64,000 bases of DNA, taken from positions 5,734 to 69,733 of the forward strand of contig JAXFZD010000021.1 in NCBI GenBank assembly GCA_034185265.1, read 5' to 3'. The notes beneath the pieces are model-generated. The model saw nothing but the letters and a program-made list of their open reading frames with translations. It was not told the DNA's origin and made no database searches. Shown here piece after piece: positions 7,270 through 37,200 of the stretch. How positions within the stretch are numbered: the stretch's first letter is position 1; each line of letters begins with the position of its first letter. Made by a program: the position numbers and the translations under genes. Origin of the DNA: Bacilli bacterium (GTDB taxonomy: Bacteria > Bacillota_I > Bacilli_A > RFN20 > CAG-826).

Positions 7270-7448
7270 AGTTTAACCTCACCTAGAAATTATAATTTGT
7301 CGTTAATTATTCTCAATATAAATAGATGTTTTTTGAAATTCTTATATGAAAGAAATTTAGTAAGAAAATTATTGAGATTTAGACAATGTAAAAGAATGGA
7401 CCAAGAAGAATGTATAACATTTTGTTTTTACTAAAGTAAAATATAAAT

Positions 7449-8096: not shown

Positions 8097-8098
8097 TT

Positions 8099-9028: not shown

Positions 9029-9057
9029 TATCTTTATTTATTAGAATAATAAAACGA

Positions 9058-9095
9058 CACTAAAGTTCCGTGTTTGACTTAGTGCCTTTTTATTT
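9058..9095 (+). terminator. putative rho-independent terminator after prs
   Basis: CACTAAAGT / ACTTAGTG stem (one bulge) with a 10-nt loop, followed by CCTTTTTATTTT. Confidence 0.45.
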
Positions 9096-9117
9096 TAATT
9101 GGTCTATAATACCGCAA

Positions 9118-16972: not shown

Positions 16973-17863
16973 ATGAAAATGTATTTTTTATTAATTTTAG
17001 GCTCTGCCTTACTTCTAGCTTCTTGCGGAGGTAATTCCTCTCCGGTAGTAAGTTCAAGTGCTACTCAATCATCTATTGAATCTTCTCAAATAAGCGAAAG
17101 TAGTTCTTTTATTGAATCTAGTTCAGAAATAGAAGTTTCTAGCGAAGAAGAATCTATCCCAGAAATAAGCGAAGAATCCGAAGTTTTTTCTTCTGAAATA
17201 GAGCTTTCTTCTGTTGAAGAATCTTCAGAAACTCAGGAAATTTCAGAAAGCGAGCTATCTGAAGAATCAGAATCAGCAGTTAGTGAATCAGAAGCTGAAG
17301 AATCATCTTTAGTTGAATCTTCTGAAGAAGAATCTTCTGAATCTATTTATAGTTCAGAGAGTGAATACATTTCTGAATGCGAAGAAGAATCAGAAATTGA
17401 AGAGAGCAGCGATGAAGAAGCTACAGTTATTACGATTGATAGAAATTGCATTCCTGAAACAAAACAAAGTCAATATCTCGATAACGTTGATTTTACAGAT
17501 GTAAGTGAAGAATATAATTTCCACGGAGATAGAATTCAAAGAGGAACAGGAGATTTTGATGGATATATCCAATTCTCTTCTGCAAGTAAAGGAGCTGGTT
17601 ATTTATATAATAAGGATAGAATAAAAGGAAGTGTAGAGCTTAGATTCCTTCATATGGATAATCATCAGGGCGCTTCTGTTACTGGAATTCCAACTGTTTA
17701 TGTTGGAGAAGAAATGAATCCTTCTACAGAAATTGAATTAGAAAGCAAATATACATCAGGTTTAGATTATTACTATTTTAGCTTTGATGGATTCTTTAAA
17801 CTTACAACAAAAAGCAATTATAAAATGGAGTTAGAATACTTAAAAATAACTCTAGTAGACTAA
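16973..17863 (+). CDS. lipoprotein with Ser/Glu-rich acidic spacer and a C-terminal ~140-aa globular domain
   Basis: Signal peptide plus lipobox LLLASCGG. Residues ~24-150 are almost only S, E, I and V. Confidence 0.75.
   Translation: MKMYFLLILGSALLLASCGGNSSPVVSSSATQSSIESSQISESSSFIESSSEIEVSSEEESIPEISEESEVFSSEIELSSVEESSETQEISESELSEESESAVSESEAEESSLVESSEEESSESIYSSESEYISECEEESEIEESSDEEATVITIDRNCIPETKQSQYLDNVDFTDVSEEYNFHGDRIQRGTGDFDGYIQFSSASKGAGYLYNKDRIKGSVELRFLHMDNHQGASVTGIPTVYVGEEMNPSTEIELESKYTSGLDYYYFSFDGFFKLTTKSNYKMELEYLKITLVD
17042..17423 (+). repeat. low-complexity coding repeat (GAA/TCT-rich, encodes the S/E-rich spacer)
   Basis: Imperfect reiteration of gaatct/gaagaa/tcagaa units. Translation: SSEIEVSSEEES..SESELSEESES.. 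Confidence 0.6.
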
Positions 17864-18222
17864 TGAAAGAAAAAGATCCGTTTTTAAAGAATATAAAGAT
17901 AGATTCTTTTCCAACTTCTTTTGATGATTCTCCTAACTTTAAAAAAGGTTATGAGATTTTTACTAGTGGCGGAGTTAACTTTATTGAGCAAGTTCGTCCT
18001 GGGTTTTATAAAGGGGAAACCGAAGTTGATAATAAAACATATTTCACACATATAAAGATAGATTCTTTTGGCAAAATAGAATCAAAATGCGACAACAAAA
18101 AATGCAATGATTTTCCTGGAATTTGCATACACGGGTGTGCTATTTTGTTTGAAATCATTAAAGAATATGGTTATTCAAATGATGTTGAGGATAGTGGATT
18201 TTTTGCCGATGATTATTTATAA
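17863..18222 (+). CDS. SWIM zinc-finger-like small protein
   Basis: KGYEIFTSGGVNF...Y.THIKI....CDNKKC..(x7)..CIHGCAILFEI follows the bacterial SWIM layout (RG..Y..G.V ... C.C ... CxH..A.l). TAATG overlap with the upstream lipoprotein gene. Confidence 0.5.
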   Translation: MKEKDPFLKNIKIDSFPTSFDDSPNFKKGYEIFTSGGVNFIEQVRPGFYKGETEVDNKTYFTHIKIDSFGKIESKCDNKKCNDFPGICIHGCAILFEIIKEYGYSNDVEDSGFFADDYL

Positions 18223-21200
18223 GCGTACGGCGTTGAATTAGTCACAGCAGAAGTATTATTTGTAAAGTAAGTCTTCATAATATTCTTAAAGGTATCGGTT
18301 CCGCTGATTGTTAAAGTATTTTTGTTTTTAGTACTATTAGTCGGTTTATAGTAAGTTGCTTTGTAGCTAGTGTTATCGTAGCAGTTTTTATATGTTCCTG
18401 TTTCTAAATTCTTGATTGTTATACTAAATGTGACACCCAAGATAGAGACAATACTCATGGATTCTGTTGTAGCAAGAGAGTAAAGAACACGTTTTCCATT
18501 GCTTAAAGCTTTTGTTCCTAATTTTGCGTTTAACGTGGATAGAGCGCTTGAGTGAGCTAAAGCATCGACTCCTAACCCAATATTCCATGATTTATCAGAA
18601 GAATTATAAGTAAATGATGTGATCATATCTTCGCCATGTAGAGAAGATGGAGAAGCCTCATCTAAACTCATTGCATCGTATGTTTTATTATTAAATCCAA
18701 GCATGAATTTAAGTAACCACTGTAATAAATTATCCTTAAAGTGGGCTGAAGTCATCTTTTCTGTATATGTACGATAGTTATGGTAATTTAAAACAAGCAT
18801 TCTCATCGTCGTGTAATAGTCAACCCGTTGTAAAATAACTTTATCTGTATCTGAATTTCCGGTGAAATGAGCAAAAATAGAAGAGTAGTGCTTCATAGTT
18901 GAGTGATTATCATCAAAGTTTCCATAGCCAAGAAGATATACACAGTCTACATCAATTAATCCATATAAGTAGATTTCACTTCCTTTAAGCCATAAATAGA
19001 AATCTAATCTAATATTGAAGTTACCGAATATTGAAGCACTTAAAGTAGCAGATCCGTTAATATGATAAGTAGAGAAATCTGCTGTATCTAAACCTAGATA
19101 GAAAGTATCTAGGGCGTATTGTCCAAGTTGCTTAAATGAAGAGTAATCTGAGAAGTTAGACTTTGATTGCCCTGCAAAATTCATCTGAATTTGTTCATTT
19201 TCACCTAAAACTTTGGTTACGTCTAGCTCTAAATAGATGTGCTTTTTATTACTTCCATCACTATCTCCGCCTGTAGCAAGAGAGATAATTAAAGATTTAA
19301 TTCCAGCAGTAGATAATTTAGTTTGATCGCTAGACTCAGGATCATAAGAAGAATCAAAACCAATTTTAACAGTAATATAGCCATCGCTTCCTGCAACCCA
19401 AGGTTCAATTAAAATAGTATCAACGTTATTGGATCCAATTTGAATTGAATGAATCATAGGTCTAGTTAATAGTGTGGCGTATTGTCTATCTAAAATTTCA
19501 CTTAAAAGTGAATTAGAGTTAGATAAAAGGGAGAAAAGTCTATTAAGTCTTCCATCATCTTGATCTTGGAAACTTCTTACTACATCAAGGATTCCATTTA
19601 ATGAGTGGATAGAGAATCTACCTTTCATAGCGCTCTTATGTGGTTCTGTTCTAGTTTTGCCGTCAGAATCCGTATAAGTGTAGCCGCTATCATATCCGCT
19701 AGCAGATTTAGATTTTAGAGTGGTATTTACGTTCTTTGAATTATATTCAAAAAGCATGTTATTGAAGTTAGCGGTATTTTCATCATCAGTTTCTCCTTCA
19801 ACTTCATCACCTTCAATATCAATTTTTAATGTATGATCGTTACGATATTCTTCTTTTCTATCGGTAAATACAACGGATCCTGCTCCTTTTTTAGCTAAAA
19901 GGTCAAAGGCAAAATTACCATTAAAGGTAAATCCTTGAAGAGTTTTATTATTGTATTTTGGCTCTGTAATATTAGAGAAAGCTTGAGAAGTTCCTACATC
20001 GTTAAGTTTATCTTTTAAAATGTAGCCTCTTAAAGTAAAGCTTGCTCTAGTGGATTTAGTTAAAAGTCTAAGCTGATCGCTAACTCCTTCTAAATGAGAC
20101 ATTTCTACATAAGAAGAAACATCGTAATTGTTTTGAACTTTGTTATAAGGAACAACTTTAATTTCTCCTCTAATTCCTAAAGTGGCTTTTTCTGAAGAGC
20201 CATGTAAAGCAACTCCGTCAGGGAAAGTGATGACTACCAGTGGTCCAGATTCGCTTACATCTTTAAGTTCAATAACTACGCTTCCTTCCAGTCCGGCATT
20301 AGCTAGGCTTAATTCTACTTTTAGATAGTTATTTCCATTAACTAAAGTAGTCACCATATCGAGAATATCGTGATATTTTCCTTCTTTCATATTGGTTACT
20401 AAAGAAGAATCAGTTATAGCTTCAATTCCTTTAAATACATAGTCAGCTAAAGAAATTAAATCGGAAAGATTTTCGTTGTGAATATTTTCATCATCTAAGA
20501 TTGCAGAAAGGTTTTCAAATATGGCATCTACGACAGTTTTAGAAGTTTTAACTTGAGCAATATCGTTATAGTTAATTAAATATTCGTTATTTGCATCATT
20601 AGCTTCTGCTGATGATTTATCGTAGAAAAGATTAAGGAATTGCGAGTATTTTAGGTTATTTGAGCCATCAAATGACTTTAAAGTAGCTAGTGCGCCTAAG
20701 TCATCAATGTTATTTGAAGATAGATTAATTGATGAATTTAAAGTTACATTTACTGTTTCATCTACGGCTGGGTGATTTGTTTTATCTGGATCAGTAATTG
20801 CTGCCTCTTTATGAATGAAATTTATGTCAGCTTCAACGTTAAATTTCTTTAAATTGATGTATTTTGCAATTTTCTTAAATAGAGCAGTGGAATCCGTGAT
20901 ATCTCTATAATTTGCTGCATCTTCAACTACAAAAGATGGAAGAGTGTTAGCAGAAGTGATAGAAGCTTGAAGTTTTAACTTTAAGTTATCTTTTAAGGTA
21001 CATTCATCTTGAATCCCATTATTTATTGCTGGGAAATCAACTCTAGAAAGTGAATAGTCATTTTCAGTTAAGAAGCCAATTGTGTAAGTATTATCGTTGT
21101 TTTCTATTTCCATGCTGAAATAAGGCTTTCCTCCGATTCTTGTTTCTACAATTGAGTCAAAAGAAGCAAAAAGCTTAGAAGTATTAAATACTGAAGTGGA

Positions 21201-21884
21201 TTCTTCTTCTAGTTCAGAAGAAACAGAAACAGGATCTTCTATATCGCTAGATTGAGTTAAAGTTTCAAGTATATCGTGGATAAAGGAATCTAAATTTCCA
21301 TATTCAAACCAATAAACTCCTCCTGTAACAGGGTCAATTGATTGGTTATTTATTGTTGTATCTGCGGATTCTAAGCTGGCTTTATAAGCAAAATCATATT
21401 TATCTTGGTTATTTTCGATGTTTGCGATTCTAAAGTAGAGTTCGTCATCAGATAAAGTTAAAGCTAGTTCTCTAGAAATTCCGTTATAAGAAATTGGTGC
21501 ATCTAAACAAACTTTCAAATCATGGACGGAGAATCCATCTAAGCAAAGAACACCTGTAGTTCCTTGGAAATCGATAACATTCTCTCCTGTTTTTGAGGAA
21601 TCGCTAGAAGTAAATGAAAGAGTTCCATAATCTATATCGAATCTAAGTCCGCCATTAGTGATGTTAACTAGGCTACTAATAAATTTCGTTCTGCTTTGTA
21701 AAGTGTCTGGAACATCAGCAAACTTATCAGTGTCATATTCATTGTTAAGATTTTGATTTGTAATTTCTGGATTATTAGCTTCGTTTATGTCTGGTTTAAC
21801 CGAGCAAGAAAAAAGCATTGCTGAAATTAGTGCCAAAAGCACTAATCCTTGTGAATGAATTTTTTTCTTAAATAAGTTTCTCAT
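18213..21884 (-). CDS. large (1223 aa) lipoprotein, paralog of the 22739..26791 product
   Basis: Signal peptide with Cys (LALISAMLFSCSV). Co-linear similarity to the 1350-aa protein (see findings). Beta-rich and N/S/T-rich. No known domain recognised. Confidence 0.8.
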   Translation of the reverse strand: MRNLFKKKIHSQGLVLLALISAMLFSCSVKPDINEANNPEITNQNLNNEYDTDKFADVPDTLQSRTKFISSLVNITNGGLRFDIDYGTLSFTSSDSSKTGENVIDFQGTTGVLCLDGFSVHDLKVCLDAPISYNGISRELALTLSDDELYFRIANIENNQDKYDFAYKASLESADTTINNQSIDPVTGGVYWFEYGNLDSFIHDILETLTQSSDIEDPVSVSSELEEESTSVFNTSKLFASFDSIVETRIGGKPYFSMEIENNDNTYTIGFLTENDYSLSRVDFPAINNGIQDECTLKDNLKLKLQASITSANTLPSFVVEDAANYRDITDSTALFKKIAKYINLKKFNVEADINFIHKEAAITDPDKTNHPAVDETVNVTLNSSINLSSNNIDDLGALATLKSFDGSNNLKYSQFLNLFYDKSSAEANDANNEYLINYNDIAQVKTSKTVVDAIFENLSAILDDENIHNENLSDLISLADYVFKGIEAITDSSLVTNMKEGKYHDILDMVTTLVNGNNYLKVELSLANAGLEGSVVIELKDVSESGPLVVITFPDGVALHGSSEKATLGIRGEIKVVPYNKVQNNYDVSSYVEMSHLEGVSDQLRLLTKSTRASFTLRGYILKDKLNDVGTSQAFSNITEPKYNNKTLQGFTFNGNFAFDLLAKKGAGSVVFTDRKEEYRNDHTLKIDIEGDEVEGETDDENTANFNNMLFEYNSKNVNTTLKSKSASGYDSGYTYTDSDGKTRTEPHKSAMKGRFSIHSLNGILDVVRSFQDQDDGRLNRLFSLLSNSNSLLSEILDRQYATLLTRPMIHSIQIGSNNVDTILIEPWVAGSDGYITVKIGFDSSYDPESSDQTKLSTAGIKSLIISLATGGDSDGSNKKHIYLELDVTKVLGENEQIQMNFAGQSKSNFSDYSSFKQLGQYALDTFYLGLDTADFSTYHINGSATLSASIFGNFNIRLDFYLWLKGSEIYLYGLIDVDCVYLLGYGNFDDNHSTMKHYSSIFAHFTGNSDTDKVILQRVDYYTTMRMLVLNYHNYRTYTEKMTSAHFKDNLLQWLLKFMLGFNNKTYDAMSLDEASPSSLHGEDMITSFTYNSSDKSWNIGLGVDALAHSSALSTLNAKLGTKALSNGKRVLYSLATTESMSIVSILGVTFSITIKNLETGTYKNCYDNTSYKATYYKPTNSTKNKNTLTISGTDTFKNIMKTYFTNNTSAVTNSTPYAYK

Positions 21885-21956
21885 ATCAAAACCCGGTTAA
21901 TTATTTCATAATTAATAAAGAATGTATTCTATTTCAATCTAACAAGATTAAAGAAA

Positions 21957-21981
21957 ACTATTCTCTAAACAAGAGAATAGT
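21957..21981 (-). terminator. hairpin ACTATTCTC-N7-GAGAATAGT followed by a T-rich tract (terminator and/or operator)
   Basis: Perfect 9-bp inverted repeat with a 7-nt loop, followed on the minus strand by TTTCTTTAAT. It lies between the XRE-TM gene stop (22018) and the 1223-aa gene start (21884). Confidence 0.45.
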
Positions 21982-22017
21982 CTATTTTTAAAAAAGAGGC
22001 GACCCGTATATGCGTTT

Positions 22018-22650
22018 TTATCTTTTGAAGTGATAATTTTTCGCAAGAATTAATATGACTTGTAGAGGAGCTCCTACTGCCATCAGGAACCAAACATTCT
22101 CTGGTGGATCGACAAAATATGCCATTTGGAAACCAAAACAAATTAAGAAAGTCCAAACAAAGGCAGATAAAAGTACTATTACGGCAATCTTATTGTGATA
22201 CATAATGTGTGTTAAGAATGCGGCAACTAAACAGCAAACAGGAACTACCCAGAAGAAGATATTCCACATTAATCTATTTTCATTTGGCTTGAAATAGTAG
22301 TCTGAAAAGAAGACACAGAACGCAACTAAAAGGATGAACATCATACTCATAGCAAGTACAACTGCCTTGTTAGTATTACTTCTTGCCATGTCTCTTTTAT
22401 CTACTTCTACAACTTTAACAATATCTTCCTGAGTTTGTTCTTTAACTAGATAATCGATTGTAACATCGTAATATAAAGCAAAATCTTTTAGGACATCTAC
22501 AGCAGGGATAGCATAGCCTAATTCCCATTTAGAAATAGATTTATCTGAATAATTGATTTCTCTTGCTAAATCTTGTTGAGTTAATCCTTTTGCTTTTCTT
22601 AAAGAGGCAAGGTTTTTACCGATAATTTGAGCTAGATTTTCATTTTCCAT
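22018..22650 (-). CDS. membrane-embedded XRE-family HTH regulator
   Basis: N-terminal HTH_3 (IGKNLASLRKAKGLTQQDLAREINYSDKSISKWELGYAIPAVDVL) followed by four hydrophobic helices. Confidence 0.8.
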   Translation of the reverse strand: MENENLAQIIGKNLASLRKAKGLTQQDLAREINYSDKSISKWELGYAIPAVDVLKDFALYYDVTIDYLVKEQTQEDIVKVVEVDKRDMARSNTNKAVVLAMSMMFILLVAFCVFFSDYYFKPNENRLMWNIFFWVVPVCCLVAAFLTHIMYHNKIAVIVLLSAFVWTFLICFGFQMAYFVDPPENVWFLMAVGAPLQVILILAKNYHFKR

Positions 22651-22685
22651 GGAGACATTTTAATACTATTGTTTTTCTTTAGAAA

Positions 22686-22718
22686 GAAAAAAGTTGGACC
22701 AACATAGTCAATCCAACT
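22686..22718 (-). terminator. putative terminator after the 1350-aa gene
   Basis: On the minus strand: AGTTGGA-(13 nt)-TCCAACT followed by TTTTTTCTTTC. Confidence 0.45.
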
Positions 22719-22738
22719 TAATTTATTTTGATTAAGAA

Positions 22739-25700
22739 TTAGAGAGCGTAAGCTCCAAATCCAACGTAGAGGTTGTAATCGTTGTTGAGGATGGAGTTAG
22801 CGGTGTAGTTCTTATAACCTACGAATCCGCAACCAGCTTTTTCATCTTCTTCGGTCCAAGAATCTGTGTATCCATTGATCTTATCAACATTCTTAAGGCC
22901 TAAGGAAATGTTAACAGCAGCAAGCTTAATTCCATGTCCTTGATCAGAATTTCCTAATTTAACATTAGCGCCAATATCGAGTTTGGAGATAGTGGAGAAG
23001 GTGTCTCCTTTTAATCCTGATAAACCGATATGGACTGTGTCAAGAAGGTATTCCATATGGAGTAACTTACCTAAATTCACTGACAAATCCCACTTGGATT
23101 CACCGATTTCGTTTTCTTGGAGGTTTTCTTCTCCATCAACGAAGGTGTAGGAGAGCTCACAGTCTTCTAAGTGTAAAGCTTCTTTAGCAAATGGATTCCA
23201 ACCAGATTTTTCTTCTGCTTGTTCTTCAACAGGTTCTGCAACTGGTTCAGCTGGTTCAGCTTCTTCTTCAGTAGCGAAGTATCTAGTATCGACACCAACC
23301 ATGTATTGTAATAAGTATTCAAGAGGATGTTCACCGAATTCGGCGCCAGTTAAAGTGAGAGTATCTCTAACGTCTCTAACTTTTCCGTAGTCAGATTCTC
23401 TTGTGAGGAATAATTCTCCACCTTCTTCAGTGTTAGATGGAACAAGAATTTCTTCTTCATTTTGTCCATTCATTGTAGTGACAACGCTATGAGCATCGTA
23501 ATAAGCATGGACATCATGATTTCCTTCTTCTTCAAGTGCTCTAAAGTAGATATCTGAATCTGGAGCATTGAGGCCTTTAATGGCTGGAAGAAGCATAGAA
23601 GCATGTAATTTAGTGGATGAAGAACCAATGTTTGTCTTTAAGGAAGCATTGATTAAGTCAATTTCGTGTTGGAATAAAGTGACAGAAGCATTTAATCCAA
23701 AGTCAAATGTAGTTGGAGTAGCAGAGTTATTTTCGCCCATCATTAATCCATTGGCGGCATAAGACATTAATCTATCAACACCTTTAATTTCCTTCATTCC
23801 TTCTGTATCTAAAGAAACGAATGTTTCATTTGGATCAAGTTCGTTTAAGTTAATCTTTAAATCAACTTCAAGAGGTTTAGCGGATTCTTTAGAAGCATTA
23901 GCAATATTAACGCCAATGTAAGCAAGTCCGTTTCCGTTGTAAGTATTTTCTACTTCACTATTATCATTTAAATATGTATTAGTGTTTTCTTCGTCGATAG
24001 CTTTGGCTGGCTTATCGGTTTGATAACCTAAAGAGACAATGATATCAGAAGAAGTACCAAATACTTGTTTATTGAGTCTGAATGAAGATTCTTCGTCACC
24101 AATAGAGGCTTCGAGGAGTAATTGATTTTCGAATAATCTAAATAAATAAGGATCATCTTGAACTTCGCTTTCACCAAGTCCACCAAGTAAGTTACCTAAT
24201 GATGGTTCAAGGATAGCCCATGTGAACTTACCAAAGAAGGAAACTCTATCTTTGAATTCTTGTTGAGTTAAAACATCTTTAACTTCGGTAAATACGCTAG
24301 AGAATGAAGAGTAGTCAAGTTTAGCAGCAATACCGTTTTGATTGACTGGGTTTGTAGCAACTTTTCCATCTTCTCTATAAAGTTTAGAATCTTCTAAATC
24401 TGTTGGATTTTCGTGCAATTCCCCGTTATTTGTATCGTATTTGAAAGCAACATATTGATTTCTATCAACTATTTCGTTTTCTTCATCGACTGTCTTTTCG
24501 TTGACGACATCGAAAGCCACATTATGTTTTTGAGCATAGTTTTCAGCAATGTGGTCGATAGAAAGAGCAGCTCTTCCTTTACCTTCATTTTTAGCCCAGG
24601 TAAATGCAGCTTCACCTTCAATCTTAACTCCAGTGGTTTCTTGTTCATATTCATCTTTATTCATGATAGAACCTTCGATTCCAATAGAGACAGCTTCGTC
24701 ATCAACTATTTCTTTAACTTGATCATAGATGCCTAAGATGTGATTCATAGAATCATAGGAAGCAATTTCTTCTTCAGTTAAGAAGACTTTATCGCTTTGT
24801 CCTAATTCATTAATTAAGATAGAACCATCGAGTTGGACTAAGTCAAATCTAACTCCTCTGAAGTTAAGTCCGACTAAACCTTTAGAATCGCTTCTTGCAT
24901 CAATAGCAAGTTCGATTTCTCCAGGAAGACCTAAGTAATTTAAATCTAAGACAATGTGTAAATAGTTATCATCGTTTTGAATAGTTTTGATTAAATCTAA
25001 TGCAGATCCGAAAGTCATTTGTTTGACATCTTGAATAAATGGAGAGTCAATGATGTTCTTTACGGCATCTTTAATATCGCTGACTAAAATAAAGTTTTTA
25101 GCAACAATTTCAATAACTTTCTTAGCTGTATCTAAGAGTTTATCTGTATCAATTGTGGATTCAGAAGTAGTGGATTCTTCTTCAGAACTTGAACTGATGA
25201 GATTTTTAATTCTTGCATATAATTCATCAATAGTTAATTTGTTGGTTTTTGCTTTTAAAACATCATTAATGTTAATGAATGCACCAGTAGAAGCAGCAAA
25301 TTCTTTAGATTCGTTAACAGTTTGGAATCTTCTATCATAGTTGACTCCTAAAGCAGCTCTTGAAACTAAATCATTTAAATCTTCATCTTGATATTTACTT
25401 TCAAATTCAAGACCTAATCCTAAACCTTCAAGAGAATATTTCTTTCCAAATTTAGCATTAACATTTAAGTCTAAGGTAGCAGTTTCTTGTGGGACATAAG
25501 CAACTGTATCGCCATGGAAAGAAGTTCTCTTATAATGAGTTAATAAGAGACCTTTCTTATCTTCATCACCTTCAGTATGCAATGTTTTTAATGCAAAAGA
25601 AGGGGATTTTGCAAGCTTTGCGATTCTTTCCCATAAATCCATAGAGTCTTCAAGAGCTCTATAAGAATCTTTATCAGCAGGAGCCATGATTAAGTTGTTA

Positions 25701-26791
25701 TTGGAACTTGAGATGTTGCTAACATCAGCAGATAAAGCAATTTTAGCAACTGTTTTTGTATCAGCTCCTTCACCTTTTGTAATAACTAAAGGATCAACTT
25801 CAGCTGCACCAGTTGGATTTGCTGGAAGATCAATTTTAGTTAAGTTATAAGAAGTATCTGTTCCTAAACCAACGGATAAATCAAGGCTTCCTAATTCAAG
25901 ATTTAATGTGAAATAGTGGCCTGTGTCGGTGTTAGTTTCAACCATGTGATTAAGAGAATCTAACATTCCATCGAGATCTAATCCTGAAGATTCAGTATCA
26001 GATTCTTCTTCGGAAGATTCTTCGCTGCTTCCATTAATTAAATCAAATAAGGAAGGAATAGTAATATCCATACCATTTCCATCTTCATTAGAATTTAAAA
26101 TTGTAAGGATTGTATCGATAATTTCGTCAAGAGAACCAAATTCATAGATTTGTTTACCACCAGTGATTTCATCGTAAACACTAACGAATTCTTGAGCGGT
26201 TTCATCCCAAACAAGCATTTCCTTCTCTTTAATAGAAGTTTTGTATTTTAAATCCCAGACTTGTTCTGCTTCAGCAGTGTCTTTAATAGGATTAGTTAAG
26301 CCAATGTAAGCCTCATCATCAACTAATGTGACTTTAAGATTTCTTTCGTGTGCATAACCTGTTGTTGGGTTATATTTTAAGTTTGCATCTAAATCAAGAT
26401 TAATGGAGTGAATAATCTTCATATCGGTAGAGGATAAGTTTCCAATTTGTAACTTTAAGTCAATTCCCCCGTTAGTTCCGTTAGTAATTGTATTCATTCC
26501 TTCACCTTTACCTGGAATTTCAACTTTAAATGTGTGAACGTTAAGATTTAATCCGCCAACGATTCCTTCTTGTAAGTTATTTACTAATCTTGCAGAACCT
26601 GAAAGAGTTGGGGTAGAAGGAACATAATTTTCTTCTTCATCTTCTTCGTTAACTACAGCTGGAAGACTATCTTGAGGTAAACCAAAATAAACTCCTGCGG
26701 CAGTTACACCAAATAAAGCTACAAACAATCCAGTTTTAGCTAAGGTTTTCTTCAATTTATTGTGTTTTTTCTCGGTATTGCTATTTTTCAT
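22739..26791 (-). CDS. large (1350 aa) signal-anchored extracytoplasmic protein, paralog of the 18213..21884 product
   Basis: One N-terminal TM helix (GLFVALFGVTAAGVYFG). S/E-rich linkers (SSEESSEEESDTESSG, SSSEEESTTSEST) and a PAEP-type acidic stretch near the C-terminus. RBS GGAGG at 26800-26804, 2 nt after the upstream stop. Confidence 0.8.
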   Translation of the reverse strand: MKNSNTEKKHNKLKKTLAKTGLFVALFGVTAAGVYFGLPQDSLPAVVNEEDEEENYVPSTPTLSGSARLVNNLQEGIVGGLNLNVHTFKVEIPGKGEGMNTITNGTNGGIDLKLQIGNLSSTDMKIIHSINLDLDANLKYNPTTGYAHERNLKVTLVDDEAYIGLTNPIKDTAEAEQVWDLKYKTSIKEKEMLVWDETAQEFVSVYDEITGGKQIYEFGSLDEIIDTILTILNSNEDGNGMDITIPSLFDLINGSSEESSEEESDTESSGLDLDGMLDSLNHMVETNTDTGHYFTLNLELGSLDLSVGLGTDTSYNLTKIDLPANPTGAAEVDPLVITKGEGADTKTVAKIALSADVSNISSSNNNLIMAPADKDSYRALEDSMDLWERIAKLAKSPSFALKTLHTEGDEDKKGLLLTHYKRTSFHGDTVAYVPQETATLDLNVNAKFGKKYSLEGLGLGLEFESKYQDEDLNDLVSRAALGVNYDRRFQTVNESKEFAASTGAFININDVLKAKTNKLTIDELYARIKNLISSSSEEESTTSESTIDTDKLLDTAKKVIEIVAKNFILVSDIKDAVKNIIDSPFIQDVKQMTFGSALDLIKTIQNDDNYLHIVLDLNYLGLPGEIELAIDARSDSKGLVGLNFRGVRFDLVQLDGSILINELGQSDKVFLTEEEIASYDSMNHILGIYDQVKEIVDDEAVSIGIEGSIMNKDEYEQETTGVKIEGEAAFTWAKNEGKGRAALSIDHIAENYAQKHNVAFDVVNEKTVDEENEIVDRNQYVAFKYDTNNGELHENPTDLEDSKLYREDGKVATNPVNQNGIAAKLDYSSFSSVFTEVKDVLTQQEFKDRVSFFGKFTWAILEPSLGNLLGGLGESEVQDDPYLFRLFENQLLLEASIGDEESSFRLNKQVFGTSSDIIVSLGYQTDKPAKAIDEENTNTYLNDNSEVENTYNGNGLAYIGVNIANASKESAKPLEVDLKINLNELDPNETFVSLDTEGMKEIKGVDRLMSYAANGLMMGENNSATPTTFDFGLNASVTLFQHEIDLINASLKTNIGSSSTKLHASMLLPAIKGLNAPDSDIYFRALEEEGNHDVHAYYDAHSVVTTMNGQNEEEILVPSNTEEGGELFLTRESDYGKVRDVRDTLTLTGAEFGEHPLEYLLQYMVGVDTRYFATEEEAEPAEPVAEPVEEQAEEKSGWNPFAKEALHLEDCELSYTFVDGEENLQENEIGESKWDLSVNLGKLLHMEYLLDTVHIGLSGLKGDTFSTISKLDIGANVKLGNSDQGHGIKLAAVNISLGLKNVDKINGYTDSWTEEDEKAGCGFVGYKNYTANSILNNDYNLYVGFGAYAL

Positions 26792-26806
26792 AATTTAAAC
26801 CTCCAA

Positions 26807-27778
26807 TTATTTAAAATATTCTGAGTAAGCAATCGTTTCATTTAAGCTCGGAATTTTGTAAGCTTCCGAATCAGTAGAATATGTGTAATATTTTGTACTA
26901 AGTGATGCTGTCATCTTGGCTCCTATGCCAGCCGCTTGCTCAGCAAAATATGACTCATATACCACCGAATCTACGAAATTTAGATCAAAATCGAGATTAA
27001 ATGTAAGATGGCAATAGTAGAAACTTGGTAATGAGGCAAGTCCTGAAATAGATTTCATCTGTAATCTATAGGTAGAGACGCCTTTGTCATCACCGGGATT
27101 AAGCTCAATTTCAACTTGATAACCTTTTGAAGTTTTTGAAGCTGATGTAACTCCTCTTCCTGAAAGGTTGTTACTCTTCAAACAAGTTTTTTTAGAAATT
27201 ATGTAGGAAGATGGTGTAGAAACGTTTCTTCCCATAAGTTCTTTGTAACTTTTTGCATCATAGGTCTTAGGGGTGACTGCAGAATAATTTGCTGAACCTC
27301 CCCAGTAAGTTGTGGTGGTATCACCTTCTTGATACATACGATCATAGAGGTTGATTAAGCCAGTAGAGATTGATTCCTCAAAGTATTTGTCGTTATTCTT
27401 TGCAAATGATGCGTAGATTGCTTGGTTAGCAATAGATGCATTAGTGTAACCAACTCCTACTGAGAAATAATTTCTAGAGGAAGTGAACTTTTCCATGGCA
27501 ACATCAATCATTTCCCATGGTCTAAGTTGTTCGTGAAGATTGCTAGCGTTTTTGACACTGTTGTATTTAGCCATTACTTCATCAATGTCATCAACAAGTT
27601 CATTTCTATCAACAACGACATTTGAACCCTTAACAACTTTGAAGAAATTGGCTGCAACAATACCAACGCCAACGCCAAAACCAATAACGACAGCACCGAT
27701 AATGCAATCTTTTATGATTACACGCTTCTTGCTGCGTTTTGATTTGTCAACACTTCTTCTTCCAAAATTATCTGGCAT
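26807..27778 (-). CDS. signal-anchored extracytoplasmic protein (~323 aa), first gene of the island
   Basis: Basic N-terminus plus one TM helix (IIGAVVIGFGVGVGIVAANFF). Start chosen at ATG 27778 behind AAGGGAG; the track's 27805 is an alternative. No known domain recognised. Confidence 0.7.
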   Translation of the reverse strand: MPDNFGRRSVDKSKRSKKRVIIKDCIIGAVVIGFGVGVGIVAANFFKVVKGSNVVVDRNELVDDIDEVMAKYNSVKNASNLHEQLRPWEMIDVAMEKFTSSRNYFSVGVGYTNASIANQAIYASFAKNNDKYFEESISTGLINLYDRMYQEGDTTTTYWGGSANYSAVTPKTYDAKSYKELMGRNVSTPSSYIISKKTCLKSNNLSGRGVTSASKTSKGYQVEIELNPGDDKGVSTYRLQMKSISGLASLPSFYYCHLTFNLDFDLNFVDSVVYESYFAEQAAGIGAKMTASLSTKYYTYSTDSEAYKIPSLNETIAYSEYFK

Positions 27779-27863
27779 TTTTCCCGCTCCCTTGAGCGGT
27801 AACATTTTAAAAGAATCATTGTCAATGTCACTCTATTAGCGTGTATCCGCACGTTAGAAAGCC

Positions 27864-27882
27864 ATTCTCTAATTTAGAGAAT
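27864..27882. promoter_or_regulatory. perfect palindrome ATTCTCTAA-T-TTAGAGAAT (candidate operator)
   Basis: 19-bp dyad located 59-86 nt upstream of the two candidate starts of the first island gene. It shares the ATTCTC-N7-GAGAAT core with 21960..21978. Confidence 0.4.
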
Positions 27883-28140: not shown

Positions 28141-28626
28141 ATGTTTAAATTAAAGGATTACGTGTTTCATACGCACTGTGGTGTATGTTTAGTCACCGAT
28201 ATTGCTCCTCTTCCAGGAGATAATAGCGGAAACCTTTACTACGTCCTTAGGCCTTTATACGGCGATGATAAAGGAAATATAGTCAGAGTTTTAGTCAAAA
28301 ACAGTTCTTCTTTAAGAGAACCATATACAAAAAAAGATATCTTAAAAATGATCGAAAGCTGGCCTTCTATTAAACAAGATTTATATATTGTTGATTCAAA
28401 AAGAAGAAAAACGTGCTACGAATCTGTTCTTTCTACAGGAAATGTAAATGAGATGGGGCCTCTTATTTATGGGGCAAAGCAACGTAAAGCAAAGGATGGC
28501 CATCTTAATGCTATGGATGCAATGTTTGTTTCTAGAGCGGAACCAATCCTTTATGGAAGTGTTGCGCTTGCTCTTAAGCTTAAATTCGAAGACGTACCCG
28601 CTTATTTAGAAGAAAAACTAAGTTAA
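28141..28626 (+). CDS. CarD/CdnL-family RNA-polymerase-binding regulator
   Basis: The N-terminus MFKLKDYVFHTHCGVCLVTDI...YYVLRP resembles the CarD_CdnL_TRCF domain. The 161-aa size is typical. Confidence 0.65.
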   Translation: MFKLKDYVFHTHCGVCLVTDIAPLPGDNSGNLYYVLRPLYGDDKGNIVRVLVKNSSSLREPYTKKDILKMIESWPSIKQDLYIVDSKRRKTCYESVLSTGNVNEMGPLIYGAKQRKAKDGHLNAMDAMFVSRAEPILYGSVALALKLKFEDVPAYLEEKLS

Positions 28627-28641
28627 AAAAGCATAAAAAAA

Positions 28642-28670
28642 CTCAGCAATTAATGAAGCTGAGATTTTTT
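28642..28670. terminator. bidirectional rho-independent terminator
   Basis: AAAAAA-CTCAGC-(10 nt)-GCTGAG-ATTTTTT between convergent genes. Confidence 0.7.
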
Positions 28671-28678
28671 AATGCTAA

Positions 28679-29131
28679 TTAGTTATCTTTCTTTACTGTG
28701 CCGTAAAGACATAAGACAGCACCAATAAAGGAGAAAATTGCTGATAAAATTGGACCAGCTCCAAGATTTCCTAAACCTGGGCTTGTTGTAAGAGCATCAA
28801 GTCCGTAGGCTTTTGTAACAATTCCCTTGGTATTAAGGAATATAATTCCTGCTGCAACAAGTAAGCCAAATGTTAAGAAGAAAAGAACTCTAGAAATAAG
28901 TCCTGGCATAAATGAAGCAATCAATCCAAGTCCAATTGCAGAAACAATGAATGAGAATGCAACTATAAGTAGTGGAATTGCAGGTTGATGGAGAACACTA
29001 GCTCCAAACATAATTTGGAATGTGTTTCCTCTTTCTGGTTGTGAAAACCCATTGGCAAATAATACAAAAACAGCTACCATAGCCATTAAGGCTGCACCAA
29101 TTCCAATTAATAAACGTACTTTATTCTTCAT
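28679..29131 (-). CDS. small integral membrane protein (4 TM)
   Basis: 150 aa and hydrophobic throughout. RBS GGAAGG. Confidence 0.6.
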   Translation of the reverse strand: MKNKVRLLIGIGAALMAMVAVFVLFANGFSQPERGNTFQIMFGASVLHQPAIPLLIVAFSFIVSAIGLGLIASFMPGLISRVLFFLTFGLLVAAGIIFLNTKGIVTKAYGLDALTTSPGLGNLGAGPILSAIFSFIGAVLCLYGTVKKDN

Positions 29132-29242
29132 AATATAAACCTTCCGAGTAGATAATATACCCTAATCAAAGGTTATGAGCAATATTTTTAATATTTATAT
29201 TAATTAAAAAAATTATTTGTGTAATAATAATAAAAGAAAATT

Positions 29243-31099
29243 ATGAGAAAGAAGAATTTAATTTCATTATTATTCCTTACAGCGATGTTTTCCGCTACTT
29301 CTTGTACTCTTAAAACCCAAGGAGATGCAGAAGATTATTACGTTGTAAAGTTTTATACTGATTTCGAAGGAATTCAGTATGATAGCTCAACTTTAAATAA
29401 TCCTGAAAAATATAAAGCTGCTAAATTTTTAGGAACTGGATACTTCTACAAGAAGAATTCAAATCTTTCTTCAGAACAGCAAGAAGAGGTTGCTGATGTT
29501 AGAATAAGCGATTTTTCTAATATTGACCGAAATGCTGATGCTTATGTTTCTGAAAGGAAAGAAACTAAAGCTTATAGATATAAATTTGATAAATTTGTAG
29601 GATTCTATGGCGATGGAACTCCTGTAGTTATGAATAATATAACCGGGAATTGCAACGTTTTTTCTCATTTTGAAGAAGTTACAAAGAATTATTTACTTAG
29701 AGTTTTCACTTCAGGTCAGCGTTTAATATTCACAGGAAATGTTGAATATGGAACTAAAGTCGGAGATAACTTAAGTGAAGAAGAAAAAACCGATTTACCA
29801 GTAGAACCAGATCATGATCCAGAAAAGACAAATGATGCTTACTACATGGTTTACCCATTTAAAGGCTATCAAGGAACTATAGCTGATGATAATGAAGAAG
29901 AAGTAAAAACTCCTTTATTAAGTAAAGAACAACTTTTAAATTGGACAGTTGAAGATAAGATCTCTTTCTATCCAGTTTTTGGAGATGAAGAGGATTCTAA
30001 AACTGCTGTTCCTTCTTACCATCCTTACTATAAAGATTACACAATCAATTATTATAAAACTAATGTCTTTACTCCTGAAAATCTTATTAAGAGTGAAGAA
30101 TATGAATGGGGACAACCTTTATCTTCTAAGCCAGTTGATGCTCCAGCTTGCAGCGAACCAGTAGATGAATCATTTACTTGGGAATTTAAGAGTTGGGTAG
30201 GCGAATATAATGTTGAAGACGAAACTGATCCTAGAGTTGAAAAAGCTTTACGTACTGCTGGACTTGATGGTGAGCTAGTTCCTTTCTCTGAAGATTTTGT
30301 TAGATATCACTGCAACGTTTATCCTTTATATGAAAAGGTTAAGAAACAAGTTAAATTTACTTGCTACATTAACCCAGATTATACAGAAACTAAAGAAGTT
30401 AACTTAGATTATGGTCAAACTGACTATACTTTACCAAAAGTTTCTGATACTTCTTCAAAGTGTTTCACTGGAAGATGGAAATTATCTCCAACAGGCGAAG
30501 CAATGGAACAAAGCGAGCTTCCAGTTAATGAAGATTTAGCAATTTATGCTGAATTTGTCGATACAGATTTAGTCTTAGGAACAGGAGAAAAGCTAAGCTT
30601 TAGAAAAGAATGTTTCATTGATTATGATGCTAACTCTAATACAACATATGATAGAGGTTATGTTCTAGAAAGTGTTCCAGATACACTTCATTCATTAGAT
30701 ATTGCTTCTTTACAAGCTGGACTACCAGTTCCAATTAAAGCTATTAATTTAGAGGATGCAACTCATCTAACTTCTATTACTTTAGATGAAAATATTACCT
30801 GTATTTATGCTAATTCATTCCGCGGAATTAAAGCAACTTCATTAGATTTATCTAATGCAAGTCACTTAATTAAAATTGATGCTCTTGCGTTCTCTTATGC
30901 AGATGCTTTAACTTCTCTTACTCTTCCTGCTTCAATTAAAGGATTAGGAAAAGGCATAATTCAAGGATGCGAAGCTTTAACTACAATCAATTTGAAAATG
31001 TCAGAAGCCAACTATAATTCTTATAAGAGCAGTGGATTAATTTCCTCTAAGTGGAATTATGTTGATTCCGTACTTAAAGTTGATCCAGCATTTATTTAA
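29243..31099 (+). CDS. lipoprotein with C-terminal BspA-type leucine-rich repeats
   Basis: Lipobox MFSATSCTL. The C-terminus (..HLTSITLDENITCIYANSFRG..ATSLDLSNASHLIKIDALAFSYADALTSLTLPASIKGLGKGIIQGCEALTTINL) has LRR_5/BspA-like periodicity. Confidence 0.75.
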   Translation: MRKKNLISLLFLTAMFSATSCTLKTQGDAEDYYVVKFYTDFEGIQYDSSTLNNPEKYKAAKFLGTGYFYKKNSNLSSEQQEEVADVRISDFSNIDRNADAYVSERKETKAYRYKFDKFVGFYGDGTPVVMNNITGNCNVFSHFEEVTKNYLLRVFTSGQRLIFTGNVEYGTKVGDNLSEEEKTDLPVEPDHDPEKTNDAYYMVYPFKGYQGTIADDNEEEVKTPLLSKEQLLNWTVEDKISFYPVFGDEEDSKTAVPSYHPYYKDYTINYYKTNVFTPENLIKSEEYEWGQPLSSKPVDAPACSEPVDESFTWEFKSWVGEYNVEDETDPRVEKALRTAGLDGELVPFSEDFVRYHCNVYPLYEKVKKQVKFTCYINPDYTETKEVNLDYGQTDYTLPKVSDTSSKCFTGRWKLSPTGEAMEQSELPVNEDLAIYAEFVDTDLVLGTGEKLSFRKECFIDYDANSNTTYDRGYVLESVPDTLHSLDIASLQAGLPVPIKAINLEDATHLTSITLDENITCIYANSFRGIKATSLDLSNASHLIKIDALAFSYADALTSLTLPASIKGLGKGIIQGCEALTTINLKMSEANYNSYKSSGLISSKWNYVDSVLKVDPAFI

Positions 31100-34246: not shown

Positions 34247-37200
34247 ATGGCGAAAATGAATTTGTTAGCTGATATGAGCGGTACTATTTCAATGGTTGAA
34301 ACAATTTTGTTATGCGTAGGTATCGGTCTTATCGTAGTTTTAGTACTTTGTTTTTTAAGAGGATTACTTAGAGGTTGGAAATATGGAACCTATCGTTTAG
34401 TTTTCATTGGAATCTTGATTGCAATTGCAGTTTGTATCCTAGGTTCTGTTTCTCAAGCAATAGGAGAATTTAATATTAGCAACTTTGTTGGGAAAATATC
34501 TTTCAATTTAAATAATAAAACGGTTGTTGTGACTCCTCAAACCGTTTTCCAAACATTAAAAGATTTAATTTACGGTATAGCTGATGCATATAACGTTAAA
34601 TCTAGTCCTGCAGAACTTCTAAATTATTCTTATGCTTTAGCATCCTCAACATTAAAGCTACTTACTTTAGCAGCAGAAATGTTAATTATTATCATTATTG
34701 GACAACTTCTTTGCCTTCTTTTCTGGCACGTTCTTTTCAAAAGAATCTTTATGCGTAAAGAAAGAGCTGCTAAGAAAGCTGCTAAATTGCAAAAGCAACA
34801 AATGGGAGTTGATGGTACAGTTCAAGGAACAGGGGAAGTTAAGAAATATAGAAAATTACGCTTAGTTTCTGCTTTTGAAGAATTTGTTTTAGCAACGGTT
34901 TGTGTATGCTTATTCTTAATGCCATTTACTGCAATCGCATCCGCAGTTAAAAATAATTTCAAAGTAAAAAATGAAGATCTTAATGGAAACGAGATCTTAA
35001 TTAATGTCAATAATATGCTCAACGCATATGATAATTCGATTATGTCTAAGATTTTCTTCGATTGGACTAAAGGCGATGGAACTAAATCATTAGATATGAG
35101 CTTAATGGATTTCCTAGGAACTGGGGAATATGGGACTGTAAAAACTTCCTTGATTAATGAAGTTTCCAATATTGCTTCTGTTGGAGGAAAAGTTGTTAAT
35201 TCTGGCCTTCTTAAATCCTTCAATCAATCTGGAGGAATTAAGTGGTACATGCTTTTAACTTGTTCAACCATTCCTGAAATTATTACTACAATCGCAAATG
35301 TTGATTTAGTTAAAATCGTTTTACCATTCGCGGTTAATATCGCAATGAATATGGAAGATGTTAAGAATGTTCTTGGCGAAGAAACAATTGCTTATTTAAC
35401 TGATGAAAAGAATCAAATTAACTGGACAAACGAACTTAAAAACCTTTCTACTGTCTATCAAAATCTCCTTGATTCAGGCTTATTTAACTGTATTGTTGAG
35501 GAAGATGAATATCTCAAGATTCCTCGTTTTAATCTAAAACAGGTTTATGAATTAATTAGCTCTGATTCAACTAAAACTCAAATTCATAATCTAACTAATA
35601 ATCTTAATGATTCAAAGGTTTTAAATAGAATCGTCACAGGTTTAACCTACACAATGTCTACCAAAGAAGAAGTAAACGACGATCCTGATGTAGTTACAGT
35701 TGGACTTTCTGATTTCTTACCTAAAGAAGGTGGAAATGTTTCTTATAACAAGATGACCAGCATGGATTGGTTTAGAGAATTAAGAATCGTTTATGATGGA
35801 TTCTATGATTTAAACAAAGTTAATCCAACTCAAGTTAAGAAACTTTTTGATGACGTTCCTTCTTATTATGATCCTGAACAACCAGTTGATAGTAGTGAAG
35901 AAGAAGGCTACATCAAATTTGGACCAGTTAAAATTAAAACAAATTCATTAACTGATGTAGTTATCGATAACGTTTCCGGAATAACTGACATTCTTGTTGG
36001 TAAATTTAATAATACTGAACCTATTGTAGATGCTAAAGGTAATTCTACCCAAGGAAACTGTATGTTAGACTCTGACTTATTAGCTAACGGTATGCCTAAA
36101 ATACTTGATGTTATCGAGAAAACCGTCAATGATTCTAGCGAAACAAAGATTAATTTAGATGACGCTAGAGCTGCATTAAATAGTGAAGATACCCCAACAT
36201 TAAAGAAGAATTTCAAGAAAGAATATAAGCATGTTCTTGAAGTTTTAGGTGACTTTGCCGCAACTGATGATGGAAAAGCTTTCTTAAAAGATTTAGAAAA
36301 TCATCCAGGATTATATTTTGATCCAACTGGAGCTCTTTATGATGTTAAAGAATCTTTAGTTGACTCCTTAATGGAAGGTATTCAAAATGTAGATAATTCT
36401 CTTATTTTAACCGGAATTATCCCAGCATTTGCTGATAATTTACTTACTTCTTTCAAAGAAAGTTTAACTGACCTTGGAATGAGTGAATTTAAATTCCCAA
36501 AACAAAATTTAGGAACCGAACTTTCTAAATTATTCTCAATTCTTAAATATTCTAAGAACGTAGTTTTAAATAGCTCTCAAATTAATTCTCTAGCTTCCGC
36601 AGGACATTTATTAACAAACTACTCAGATGAACTAATTCATTTAATCGACACAGTCGCTCAATCTAAGATTTTAAATCCAGAAAATGTTGAAGTTGGGGGA
36701 GTAACTTATGCTAAAAACTACAATTTAACGCAATTACTTAACAATATCTTCTCTAAACTTGGTGATGAAGAAGCAAAATTAACCGTTGATGAAGTTAACT
36801 CAGTTTCTAATTTATATAATCCAATTAACTATCGCGGAGAATATTTGCAACCTGTAAGTGAAACTAGTGCAGAATCTTCTCTTTTAGTCAACTTTATGAA
36901 GAGATTAGCGGATTCTCCATCATTCGATAGATTAGATAAGCTTTCCTTAGATACAACATCTTTAGGAACAAAAATTGAAATAATTTCTACCTTAAACTTA
37001 GAAGATATCTTTACTCCTGTAGATGATTCTTATTTCTTACCTAAGATTATGTCTTCAGTCTTAGATAAAGCTTTTGAAGAAGTTTTAGATCTAAAAAATT
37101 TAGGAATGACTGGACAAGTTTCATTTAAGAATATTGCTAAAGGTCATTGGCAAGCTGAAGGAAGATATTTCAATTCAATTATTTATGCCGCAAGTAACGG

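Follow-up and report, generated by a model that had tools for sequence, protein, structure and literature searches.

A conserved envelope module with two giant paralogous proteins and a membrane-bound XRE regulator in uncultured gut-associated Bacilli

Introduction

To which kind of system do two giant extracytoplasmic proteins, a small membrane protein and a membrane-bound regulator belong, whose genes lie side by side in the chromosome of a Bacilli bacterium of the RFN20 lineage? The question is raised by a stretch of 64,000 nucleotides from contig JAXFZD010000021.1 (assembly GCA_034185265.1, positions 5,734 to 69,733), referred to as the window in the following. The window is ordinary chromosome with genes for ATP synthase, PRPP synthetase, a ClpB-type ATPase and tRNAs, and it harbors four consecutive open reading frames (ORFs) on the minus strand at 18213-27778, a span of about 9.6 kb. 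In the order of transcription these encode a bitopic membrane protein of 323 residues with an N-terminal transmembrane (TM) helix and an outer domain of about 270 residues (26807..27778; the small protein), a TM-type protein of 1350 residues (22739..26791; giant A), a 210-residue regulator of the XRE family, in which a helix-turn-helix (HTH) domain is joined to four hydrophobic segments (22018..22650; XRE-TM), and a lipoprotein-type paralog of giant A with 1223 residues (18213..21884; giant B).

An earlier description made from the letters alone, here called the sequence-only reading, had delineated the same four genes, and its coordinates all match the ORFs found. It had also recognized the regulator with its four TM helices and the lipoprotein nature of the 1223-residue protein, which agrees with an HTH_3 match above cut-off plus four hydrophobic segments in the former and a lipobox, L-F-S-C, at residues 24-27 of the latter. 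Here, we describe the locus as an envelope module that is conserved among uncultured, gut-associated Bacilli and inherited with the chromosome. New are the size of the giant family, its cryptic repeats, a confident structural model without a convincing neighbor, and a conserved palindrome in front of the genes.

Conservation of the gene set in related loci

Is this arrangement a peculiarity of one genome? In total, 51 related loci (labelled L and a number below) were collected by exact-protein look-ups, by a DNA pattern search in GTDB genomes, and by a metagenome scan that contributed 24 loci. The pattern was a hand-made, degenerate one for the small protein, G[DN]xYFEES-x10-[DN]RM, and all 15 of its matches in GTDB genomes were true. 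Orthologs of the small protein occur in 51 of the 51 loci, are 27-63% identical to the window protein, and share the motifs YFEES.S, DRMYQ and QMK.IS.L..P.F.CHL. Wherever the sequence of a locus reaches far enough to judge the linkage, a giant gene follows directly after the small gene on the same strand, namely in 27 of 27 loci of two collections and in 23 of 24 further metagenome loci. The sole exception is L029, in which the small gene is followed not by a giant but by PepF, after a gap of 866 bp (7403-9938); this locus may be a decayed or rearranged module.

The regulator gene takes part in this linkage in three layouts. The order small-A-XRE-B is found in the window, L001, L002, L006, L033 and L038, and the order small-A-B-XRE in L003, L005, L028, L031 and L032. 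A regulator gene divergent from the small-giant pair is seen in L009, L010, L012, L026, L035, L037 and L039-L051. Furthermore, the XRE-TM gene of L008 lies 3.4 kb off behind groESL and tyrS, the lipoprotein-type giant comes first in the distant loci L008 and L011, and several loci contain a single giant, which is of the TM/YxxxP type. Since the flanking genes differ between the major clades, the linkage of small protein, giant and regulator is not mere synteny. The neighbors of the distant loci are heterogeneous, and no other consistent functional partner was found among them. A linked four-gene unit had been described for the window, and the linkage seen across the related loci clearly contradicts the possibility that the genes are never linked elsewhere.

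In which organisms does the module reside? Named members of the giant family carry the title 'MAG: hypothetical protein [Bacilli bacterium]', MAG standing for metagenome-assembled genome. The module-bearing genome records are titled Erysipelotrichaceae bacterium, uncultured Bacilli bacterium, uncultured Mollicutes bacterium UMGS153 and Candidatus Alloenteromonas pullicola, next to a few implausible labels. The contigs of L015, L018 and L021 sit in bins titled Roseburia hominis, Lachnospiraceae bacterium and Parasutterella excrementihominis, and most likely they are mis-binned or mislabelled rather than from true hosts. The guanine-plus-cytosine (GC) content of the metagenome loci ranges from 33 to 54%.

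Two ancient paralogs of a large protein family

The giants had been proposed to be ancient paralogs on the basis of a few blocks matched by eye. A pairwise comparison bears this out: BLASTP aligns giants A and B over about 800 columns with 22% identity at E=8e-26, and every block quoted in the sequence-only reading falls inside the alignment. The claim of colinearity over the whole length at low identity also stands, as ten A-type and B-type proteins, taken from five genomes, align colinearly as far as the C-terminus, with invariant residues throughout. In a neighbor-joining tree the giants form two clades, a TM-type with the motif ..TYF..P.. directly after the hydrophobic segment and a lipoprotein-type. 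Lineages with orthologs of only about 25% identity separated after the duplication, and thus 'ancient' is an appropriate word.

How are these proteins held at the cell surface? Two sorts of N-terminus account for the whole family: some members have a lipobox, the others a hydrophobic segment that carries the conserved motif YxxxP. Giant B starts with MRNLFKKKIHSQGLVLLALISAMLFSC, which comprises a K-rich n-region, a hydrophobic h-region and Cys27; its lipobox LFSC was counted under the pattern [LVI][ASTVI][GAS]C, with the Phe at -2 being atypical as read from the motif. The B-type orthologs carry lipoboxes such as LISC, VSSC, LSSC and similar. Giant A has a hydrophobic segment at residues 20-39 followed by the ..TYF..P.. 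motif, and the end of this segment, ..VTAAG, aligns with the lipoboxes ..VTAC and ..ISAC of some homologs. The description of giant A as signal-anchored therefore holds for the hydrophobic segment itself, while a retained anchor is one of two outcomes: the N-terminal helix may be kept or it may be cleaved.

The family is larger than simple searches suggest. Word-indexed homolog searches returned only four and three relatives, and a profile of ten sequences only two, since low-complexity words dominated; an exhaustive search was needed. With a HMMER profile run against 1.84 billion cluster representatives at 50% identity, 190 proteins were found at E<=1e-3, 114 of them at E<=1e-30, and the full-length members are nearly all 950-1460 residues long. 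The sources of these clusters are MAGs of uncultured Bacilli, Erysipelotrichaceae or 'Mollicutes' from the gut. The giants also diverge quickly. They are 52-53% identical where PepF keeps 68%, and 27% where PepF keeps 65%, a rate faster than that of neighboring housekeeping genes and near that of an adjoining BspA-type leucine-rich repeat (LRR) lipoprotein.

Do the giants, or the small protein, belong to any family described so far? NCBI annotates all three as 'hypothetical protein' and the regulator as 'helix-turn-helix transcriptional regulator'. Neither the giants nor the 323-residue protein has a Pfam or NCBIfam match even at E<=1, and none of them is matched by PADLOC or PHROGs, where only the regulator gives generic HTH matches. 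No sequence of the PDB matches the single giants or the small protein, or the profiles built from 54 giants and 9 small proteins (E<=10). A Pfam search with 41 diverse giants revealed no recurrent family, and the same is true for the orthologs of the small protein. Likewise, full-text literature searches found no paper describing the module. The sequence-only reading, which could place none of these three proteins in a family, is supported in this point. The idea that the small protein is a fragment or relative of the giants was rejected, as hhalign aligns the TM helix only.

Internal repeats and predicted structure of the giants

The sequence-only reading had seen no adhesin repeats in the giants. 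At the profile level repeats do exist, as profile-profile comparison finds a two-part module of about 280 residues in triplicate: hhalign relates the internal segments s1~s3 with a probability of 64%, s3~s5 with 91%, s2~s4 with 86% and s4~s6 with 91%. The first three units of giant B are true internal repeats.

A structural model extends this picture. AlphaFold (AF2), supplied with 64 family members, predicts residues 27-1223 of giant B with a mean predicted local distance difference test score (pLDDT) of 81.9 and a predicted TM-score (pTM) of 0.68. This run supersedes an earlier one on a 7-sequence alignment, which reached a pLDDT of 46 and gave meaningless Foldseek matches. Disorder is limited to the N-terminal tether, one serine/glutamate-rich (S/E-rich) linker, one short loop and the C-terminal tail. 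Each unit of the model consists of a helix, 6-7 long antiparallel strands of 10-16 residues, two to four helices, and a second sheet of 5-6 shorter strands. In the secondary structure of the model this two-part unit of about 280-290 residues is present four times. The C-terminal quarter follows the same pattern, but profile-profile comparison found no sequence similarity between it and the other units.

Which known structures resemble this model? When the whole giant B model was compared with PDB and BFVD by Foldseek, no convincing neighbor appeared. Long alignments have TM-scores of 0.05-0.10. The best E-value, 1.5e-4, is that of an LptD model, and microsomal triglyceride transfer protein, lipovitellin and many porins follow at about 1e-3. 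The sole local match with high probability is to VioE (2zf3), a LolA-like half-barrel, with a probability of 0.97, a TM-score of 0.39 and a root-mean-square deviation (rmsd) of 9.7 A over 228 columns. P116, TamB, YhdP and VPS13/ATG2 are absent from the top 50 PDB matches. As far as these comparisons measure, that is, a whole-model fold search in PDB and BFVD, the module belongs to no known kind of system.

A membrane-bound regulator and a conserved palindrome

The regulator is the one component that can be assigned to a family. Residues 14-68 match PF01381 (HTH_3) with E=3e-14 and 53.2 bits, the cut-off being 23; NCBIfam has no model that this protein matches above cut-off. Orthologs of XRE-TM are 36-68% identical, the stretch of the recognition helix, YSDKSISKWELG, is invariant, and residues of the TM segments are conserved.

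Does the locus contain a site that such a protein could recognize? The perfect 19-bp palindrome ATTCTCT-N5-AGAGAAT occurs only twice in the 64-kb window, with fewer than 0.001 sites expected by chance as estimated from base composition. Both copies are intergenic and lie within the cluster. Palindrome 1, ATTCTCTAATTTAGAGAAT (27864..27882), precedes the ATG of the small gene by 86-104 bp and thus lies before the small/giant A operon, and palindrome 2, ATTCTCTAAACAAGAGAAT (21960..21978), precedes that of giant B by 76-94 bp. Both are candidate operators of XRE-TM.

The same signal is seen in the related loci. A relaxed form, AYTCT-N9-AGART, has 26 matches in the 407 kb made up by the window and 27 loci; 22 of these closely precede the small gene or the giant located after XRE, and the other 4 are about the number expected by chance. 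Of 48 usable loci, 29 have the core TCTC-N7-GAGA no more than 220 bp before the small gene, compared with about 0.2 expected from the background rate, and most of the remaining loci have palindrome variants with one mismatch, for example, ATTCTAC..GGAGAAT and ACTCTCA..TGGGAGT. The position of the palindrome follows the layout: divergent loci contain it in the shared intergenic region and split ones in two copies, with the copy between the XRE gene and giant B also found in L001, L002, L006, L033 and L038. In L010, L026, L040-L042 and L050 an extra direct copy of the half-site (..GAATTCTCA..) comes after the palindrome, a possible sign of cooperative binding or of a third position at which the protein binds.

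With an invariant recognition stretch on the one side and an invariant operator core on the other, XRE-TM is the obvious candidate to bind the palindrome, and judged by this co-occurrence it most likely does. The regulator would then occupy the 19-bp site (core TCTC-N7-GAGA) before the small/giant A operon and, in split clusters, before giant B, and would control the structural genes as well as its own gene in the divergent and in-operon layouts. Palindrome 2 also scores as terminator-like for the XRE gene. Its conserved arms and the identical site before the first gene, where there is nothing to terminate, argue for an operator rather than a terminator only; possibly it serves as both.

Such a regulator has well-known counterparts in the ToxR/CadC-type one-component regulators and the XRE-family repressors, with which it shares a cytoplasmic DNA-binding domain fused to membrane segments and a palindrome before the controlled genes, and its gene layout is compatible with autoregulation as in these systems. 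It differs from ToxR and CadC in having an XRE/HTH_3 fold instead of a winged helix, in its four TM helices, and in the absence of a sizeable external sensor domain. It may therefore sense a signal within the membrane or via the conserved TM segments of the partner proteins. We consider this regulatory part of the model, taken alone, to be probable. The view of the locus as a self-contained module with a membrane-bound regulator has gained strength from the co-occurrence of XRE-TM in three layouts and from the conserved palindrome.

What might the module do?

The previous sections lead to a composite model in which an autoregulated surface complex, anchored in the membrane, probably acts on lipids or hydrophobic ligands. 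As a whole we put this model forward tentatively, at somewhat less than an even chance. One or two extracytoplasmic proteins of about 1000-1400 residues per module would be attached to the membrane through a lipid or through an N-terminal helix, each being a chain of four two-part, beta-rich units in which long-stranded meander sheets are combined with helices. Together with the small protein they would assemble into a surface complex, and this complex may bind, extract or pass on lipids or other hydrophobic molecules. This proposed function is the weakest step, and we regard the lipid part by itself as less likely than not.

Several observations point to lipids. A gene for a patatin-like phospholipase starts 18-24 bp after the XRE gene in L003 (14155-15336), L031 (14479-15663) and L032 (17673-18878), and is found within a few kb in L006, L035 and L037, which have other layouts. 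In L010 (4943-11585) and L042 (6262-12683) a PAP2 phosphatase, a GT2 glycosyltransferase, a PlsC-type acyltransferase and ABC/FtsX genes run co-directionally, directly after the single giant. On two independent occasions, lipid-enzyme genes were added to the operon. L012 and L009 encode an LPG-synthase TM protein and a GDSL lipase close to the module. The weak fold echoes of the giant B model, which are open-sheet lipid binders, and the fact that the only possible sensor of the regulator is its membrane segments were counted on the same side. Patatin as an obligatory partner was rejected, as it occurs at only six distinct loci and is absent from the window.

These hints have to be set against a number of others. 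The window itself, like many loci, lacks a lipid-enzyme neighbor, L046 is adjoined by teichoic-acid-type genes and L039 by HAD and GGDEF genes, and chance lipid-gene neighbors are fairly frequent in small genomes. The fold matches are below any accepted threshold (TM-scores of 0.06-0.39), with porins ranking equally, and they could merely reflect long antiparallel sheets. The fast evolution of the giants is typical of exposed adhesins or antigens. On the regulatory side, palindrome 2 could also serve as a terminator.

Could the giants simply cover or attach the cell? As a surface coat or adhesin, they would bind host mucus, food particles or other cells, or shield the membrane, with the small protein as dock or export helper and XRE-TM tuning their expression. 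Their architecture would suit this, as a lipid or TM anchor at the N-terminus precedes a very large extracellular body of modular tandem repeats with disordered, S/E-rich linkers, and so would their divergence, which is faster than that of neighboring housekeeping genes and close to that of the BspA-type LRR lipoprotein. In addition, the hosts are all gut-associated and other surface proteins, an LRR_5 lipoprotein and an S/E-rich lipoprotein, flank the module. However, no Ig-like, LRR, collagen-binding or lectin domain was found by Pfam in 41 members or by Foldseek, and the module exists in one copy, its gene order and partner being strictly conserved, whereas variable adhesins typically expand and are shuffled. 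It is also unusual for an adhesin to have a highly conserved regulator of its own and an N-terminal TM motif under strong conservation, and the two recruitments of lipid-enzyme genes into the operon speak against this role as well. Overall, we regard it as the main rival explanation, possible but rather unlikely. A different surface role, as a scaffold for envelope biogenesis or morphogenesis, would make the membrane HTH protein a structural component and let the giants organize a thin wall, teichoic acids or division. RodZ is a precedent for a membrane protein that carries an XRE-type HTH and yet does not act as a regulator. Teichoic-acid-type genes (ADH and IspD-like) adjoin the module in L046, EzrA is near it in L008 and L009, and related orders have unusual, partly reduced walls (PMC10868615). 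The conserved palindrome before the genes argues instead for DNA binding and regulation, the neighbors vary between lineages, and no link to mreB, ftsZ or mur genes appears in any locus seen, so that we judge a scaffold improbable.

The long beta-rich bodies led the sequence-only reading to mention, as speculation, the AsmA-like repeating-beta-groove proteins (TamB, YhdP, AsmA; PMC10345924), in which a membrane-anchored, continuous hydrophobic groove would carry bulk lipid to another membrane. An N-terminal membrane anchor, a body of more than 1000 residues and a periodic build of strand-plus-helix units are indeed common to both, and the weak match to LptD (E=1.5e-4) and the lipid-gene neighbors would fit. 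Still, none of 41 members, nor either of the window giants, matches AsmA, AsmA_2, TamB, DUF748, DUF3971 or related Pfam models at E<=1, and the top 50 PDB matches include no chain of TamB, YhdP or VPS13/ATG2, with long alignments at TM-scores <=0.10. The repeat unit is another one as well, about 280 residues in two parts (sheet plus helices plus second sheet) versus a groove unit of 5 strands. The hosts belong to the Bacillota, most of which have a single membrane, and none of the loci examined revealed an outer-membrane gene. Finally, one giant paralog is a lipoprotein, and we know of no lipoprotein in the AsmA/TamB family. The comparison is not supported, and a bridge of this type is very improbable. 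The last explanation, a mobile element, prophage or anti-phage defence cassette that carries its XRE repressor along, draws on the abundance of such repressors in prophages and defence islands and on the generic PHROGs and PADLOC regulator matches of the HTH domain. These databases match neither the giants nor the small protein, GC content and skew are unremarkable across the region, and the housekeeping synteny of the flanks (PepF, Ham1, CarD-like) is kept across relatives. With a gene tree that fits vertical descent and no integrase, repeats or tRNA junction seen, such a cassette has a negligible chance.

Comparison with lipid-handling proteins

How would a lipid-handling surface complex relate to systems of similar function? 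The surface protein P116 (MPN_213) of Mycoplasma pneumoniae extracts lipids (PMC10023570, PMC12487902) and is likewise a large protein, of about 1000 residues, from a reduced-genome relative in the Bacilli/Mollicutes radiation. In both cases the fold was unknown when the proteins were first found, and lipid scavenging is a plausible need in the reduced-genome hosts of either. The 54-member profile of the giants matches no PDB chain at E<=10, and P116 is not among the 50 best Foldseek matches. Moreover, P116 is helix-rich around a cavity, whereas the giants are mostly long beta-meanders in four tandem units. To our knowledge, P116 has neither a paralog nor a small partner protein, and no XRE-TM regulator accompanies it.

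Open half-barrels of the LolA, LolB and VioE type are carriers of hydrophobic ligands, and the antiparallel sheet of 6-7 strands alternating with helices in the giants would fit such a form. LolA3 also came up among the matches of the earlier, poor model from the 7-sequence alignment. The match to VioE, with its TM-score of 0.39 and rmsd of 9.7 A, is below the usual level for a common fold, and no LolA, LolB, LppX or DUF4367 Pfam match was obtained for 41 members. Unlike these half-barrels, the unit of the giants occurs four times in tandem per chain.

Taken to its full extent, the lipid reading describes a new machine for the uptake or transfer of lipids or hydrophobic molecules. Each chain would have a new fold in which four open-sheet modules follow one another, and two ancient paralogs would be joined by a small membrane partner and by an XRE regulator that senses the state of the membrane and binds TCTC-N7-GAGA; the machine would be a functional counterpart of P116, LolA or AsmA-type systems without being related to them by descent. 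In this complete form we think the proposal rather unlikely to be correct.

Signals and neighbors in the window

The start of the small gene deserves a comment, since its stop-to-stop ORF permits an earlier ATG at 27805 that would give 332 residues. The start at 27778 is favored by the ortholog alignment, by a promoter-like site that ends at 27804, and by the NCBI call of 323 residues. This site, on the minus strand at 27804..27831, consists of GTGACA, a 16-nt spacer and TAAAAT, and has the best sigma-70-like score in the region, 10/12. A second one (TTGAAA, 18-nt spacer, AATTAT; 21908..21937, minus strand) precedes giant B. Both are consensus matches only, with no enrichment compared to shuffles. 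No riboswitch or other RNA element was found in the 360-bp leader.

Within the cluster, the small gene and giant A are tightly coupled exactly as the sequence-only reading had it: the TAA stop at 26809-26807 is followed at a distance of 2 nt by a GGAGG, read from the sequence as the ribosome-binding site of giant A (26804-26800, minus strand), and the ATG is at 26791. Giant A is followed on the minus strand by a terminator-like hairpin with a 13-bp stem and a T-run (22691..22719). This separate hairpin, together with palindrome 2 before giant B, makes three transcription units likely in this genome, namely small gene plus giant A, XRE, and giant B.

A pair of genes on the plus strand converges on the 3' end of giant B (16973-18222), comprising a 296-residue lipoprotein with a long, acidic S/E-rich linker and a 119-residue Cys-rich ORF that overlaps it (ATGA). 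The counterpart of the latter in L001 shows a faint SWIM zinc-finger match. On the other side, at 28141-31099, the module is flanked by genes for a CarD_TRCF_RID-like protein of about 160 residues, a membrane protein of about 150 residues and a BspA-type LRR_5 lipoprotein, as it also is in L001, L002 and L006. The same flank is found in L037 (14286-17505), which has a GC content of 50%, despite the different layout of its module. It may represent an extended conserved neighborhood or only synteny.

Further genes in the window are of separate interest. A third giant ORF of 2348 residues (34247-41293, plus strand) has 4-5 N-terminal TM segments and no Pfam match; it is unrelated to giants A and B and was thus rejected as a third paralog. 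A counterpart of 2469 residues occupies the same place in L006, where it adjoins Rce1-like and TraX genes. A second XRE/HTH_3 protein of 298 residues is encoded at 9070-9966 on the plus strand. At 45229-45322 on the minus strand, a tetrahydrofolate (THF) riboswitch (RF01831, 76.8 bits) lies upstream of a 183-residue ORF (44647-45198), which is probably a transporter of the folate family.

Implications

The module has turned out to be more widespread and better defined than the sequence-only reading could see. It takes up about 9.6 kb of a small genome, is conserved in relatives down to about 20% identity, and unites two protein families that have no annotation, Pfam model or structural neighbor with a regulator and a recognizable operator. 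In any case, two new protein-family entries and a new regulatory motif are justified on this basis.

The related uncultured orders RF39, RFN20 and ML615J-28 are reported to have small genomes and partly reduced walls (PMC10868615). The host lineages, labelled as Bacilli, Erysipelotrichaceae or 'Mollicutes' in MAG records, are abundant gut bacteria that have never been cultured, and the way in which such bacteria build and feed their envelope is largely uncharted. If the giants handle lipids, the module would be a new way of acquiring lipids for bacteria of a phylum whose members mainly have a single membrane. If they are adhesins or a coat instead, it would define the dominant surface structure of these gut organisms.

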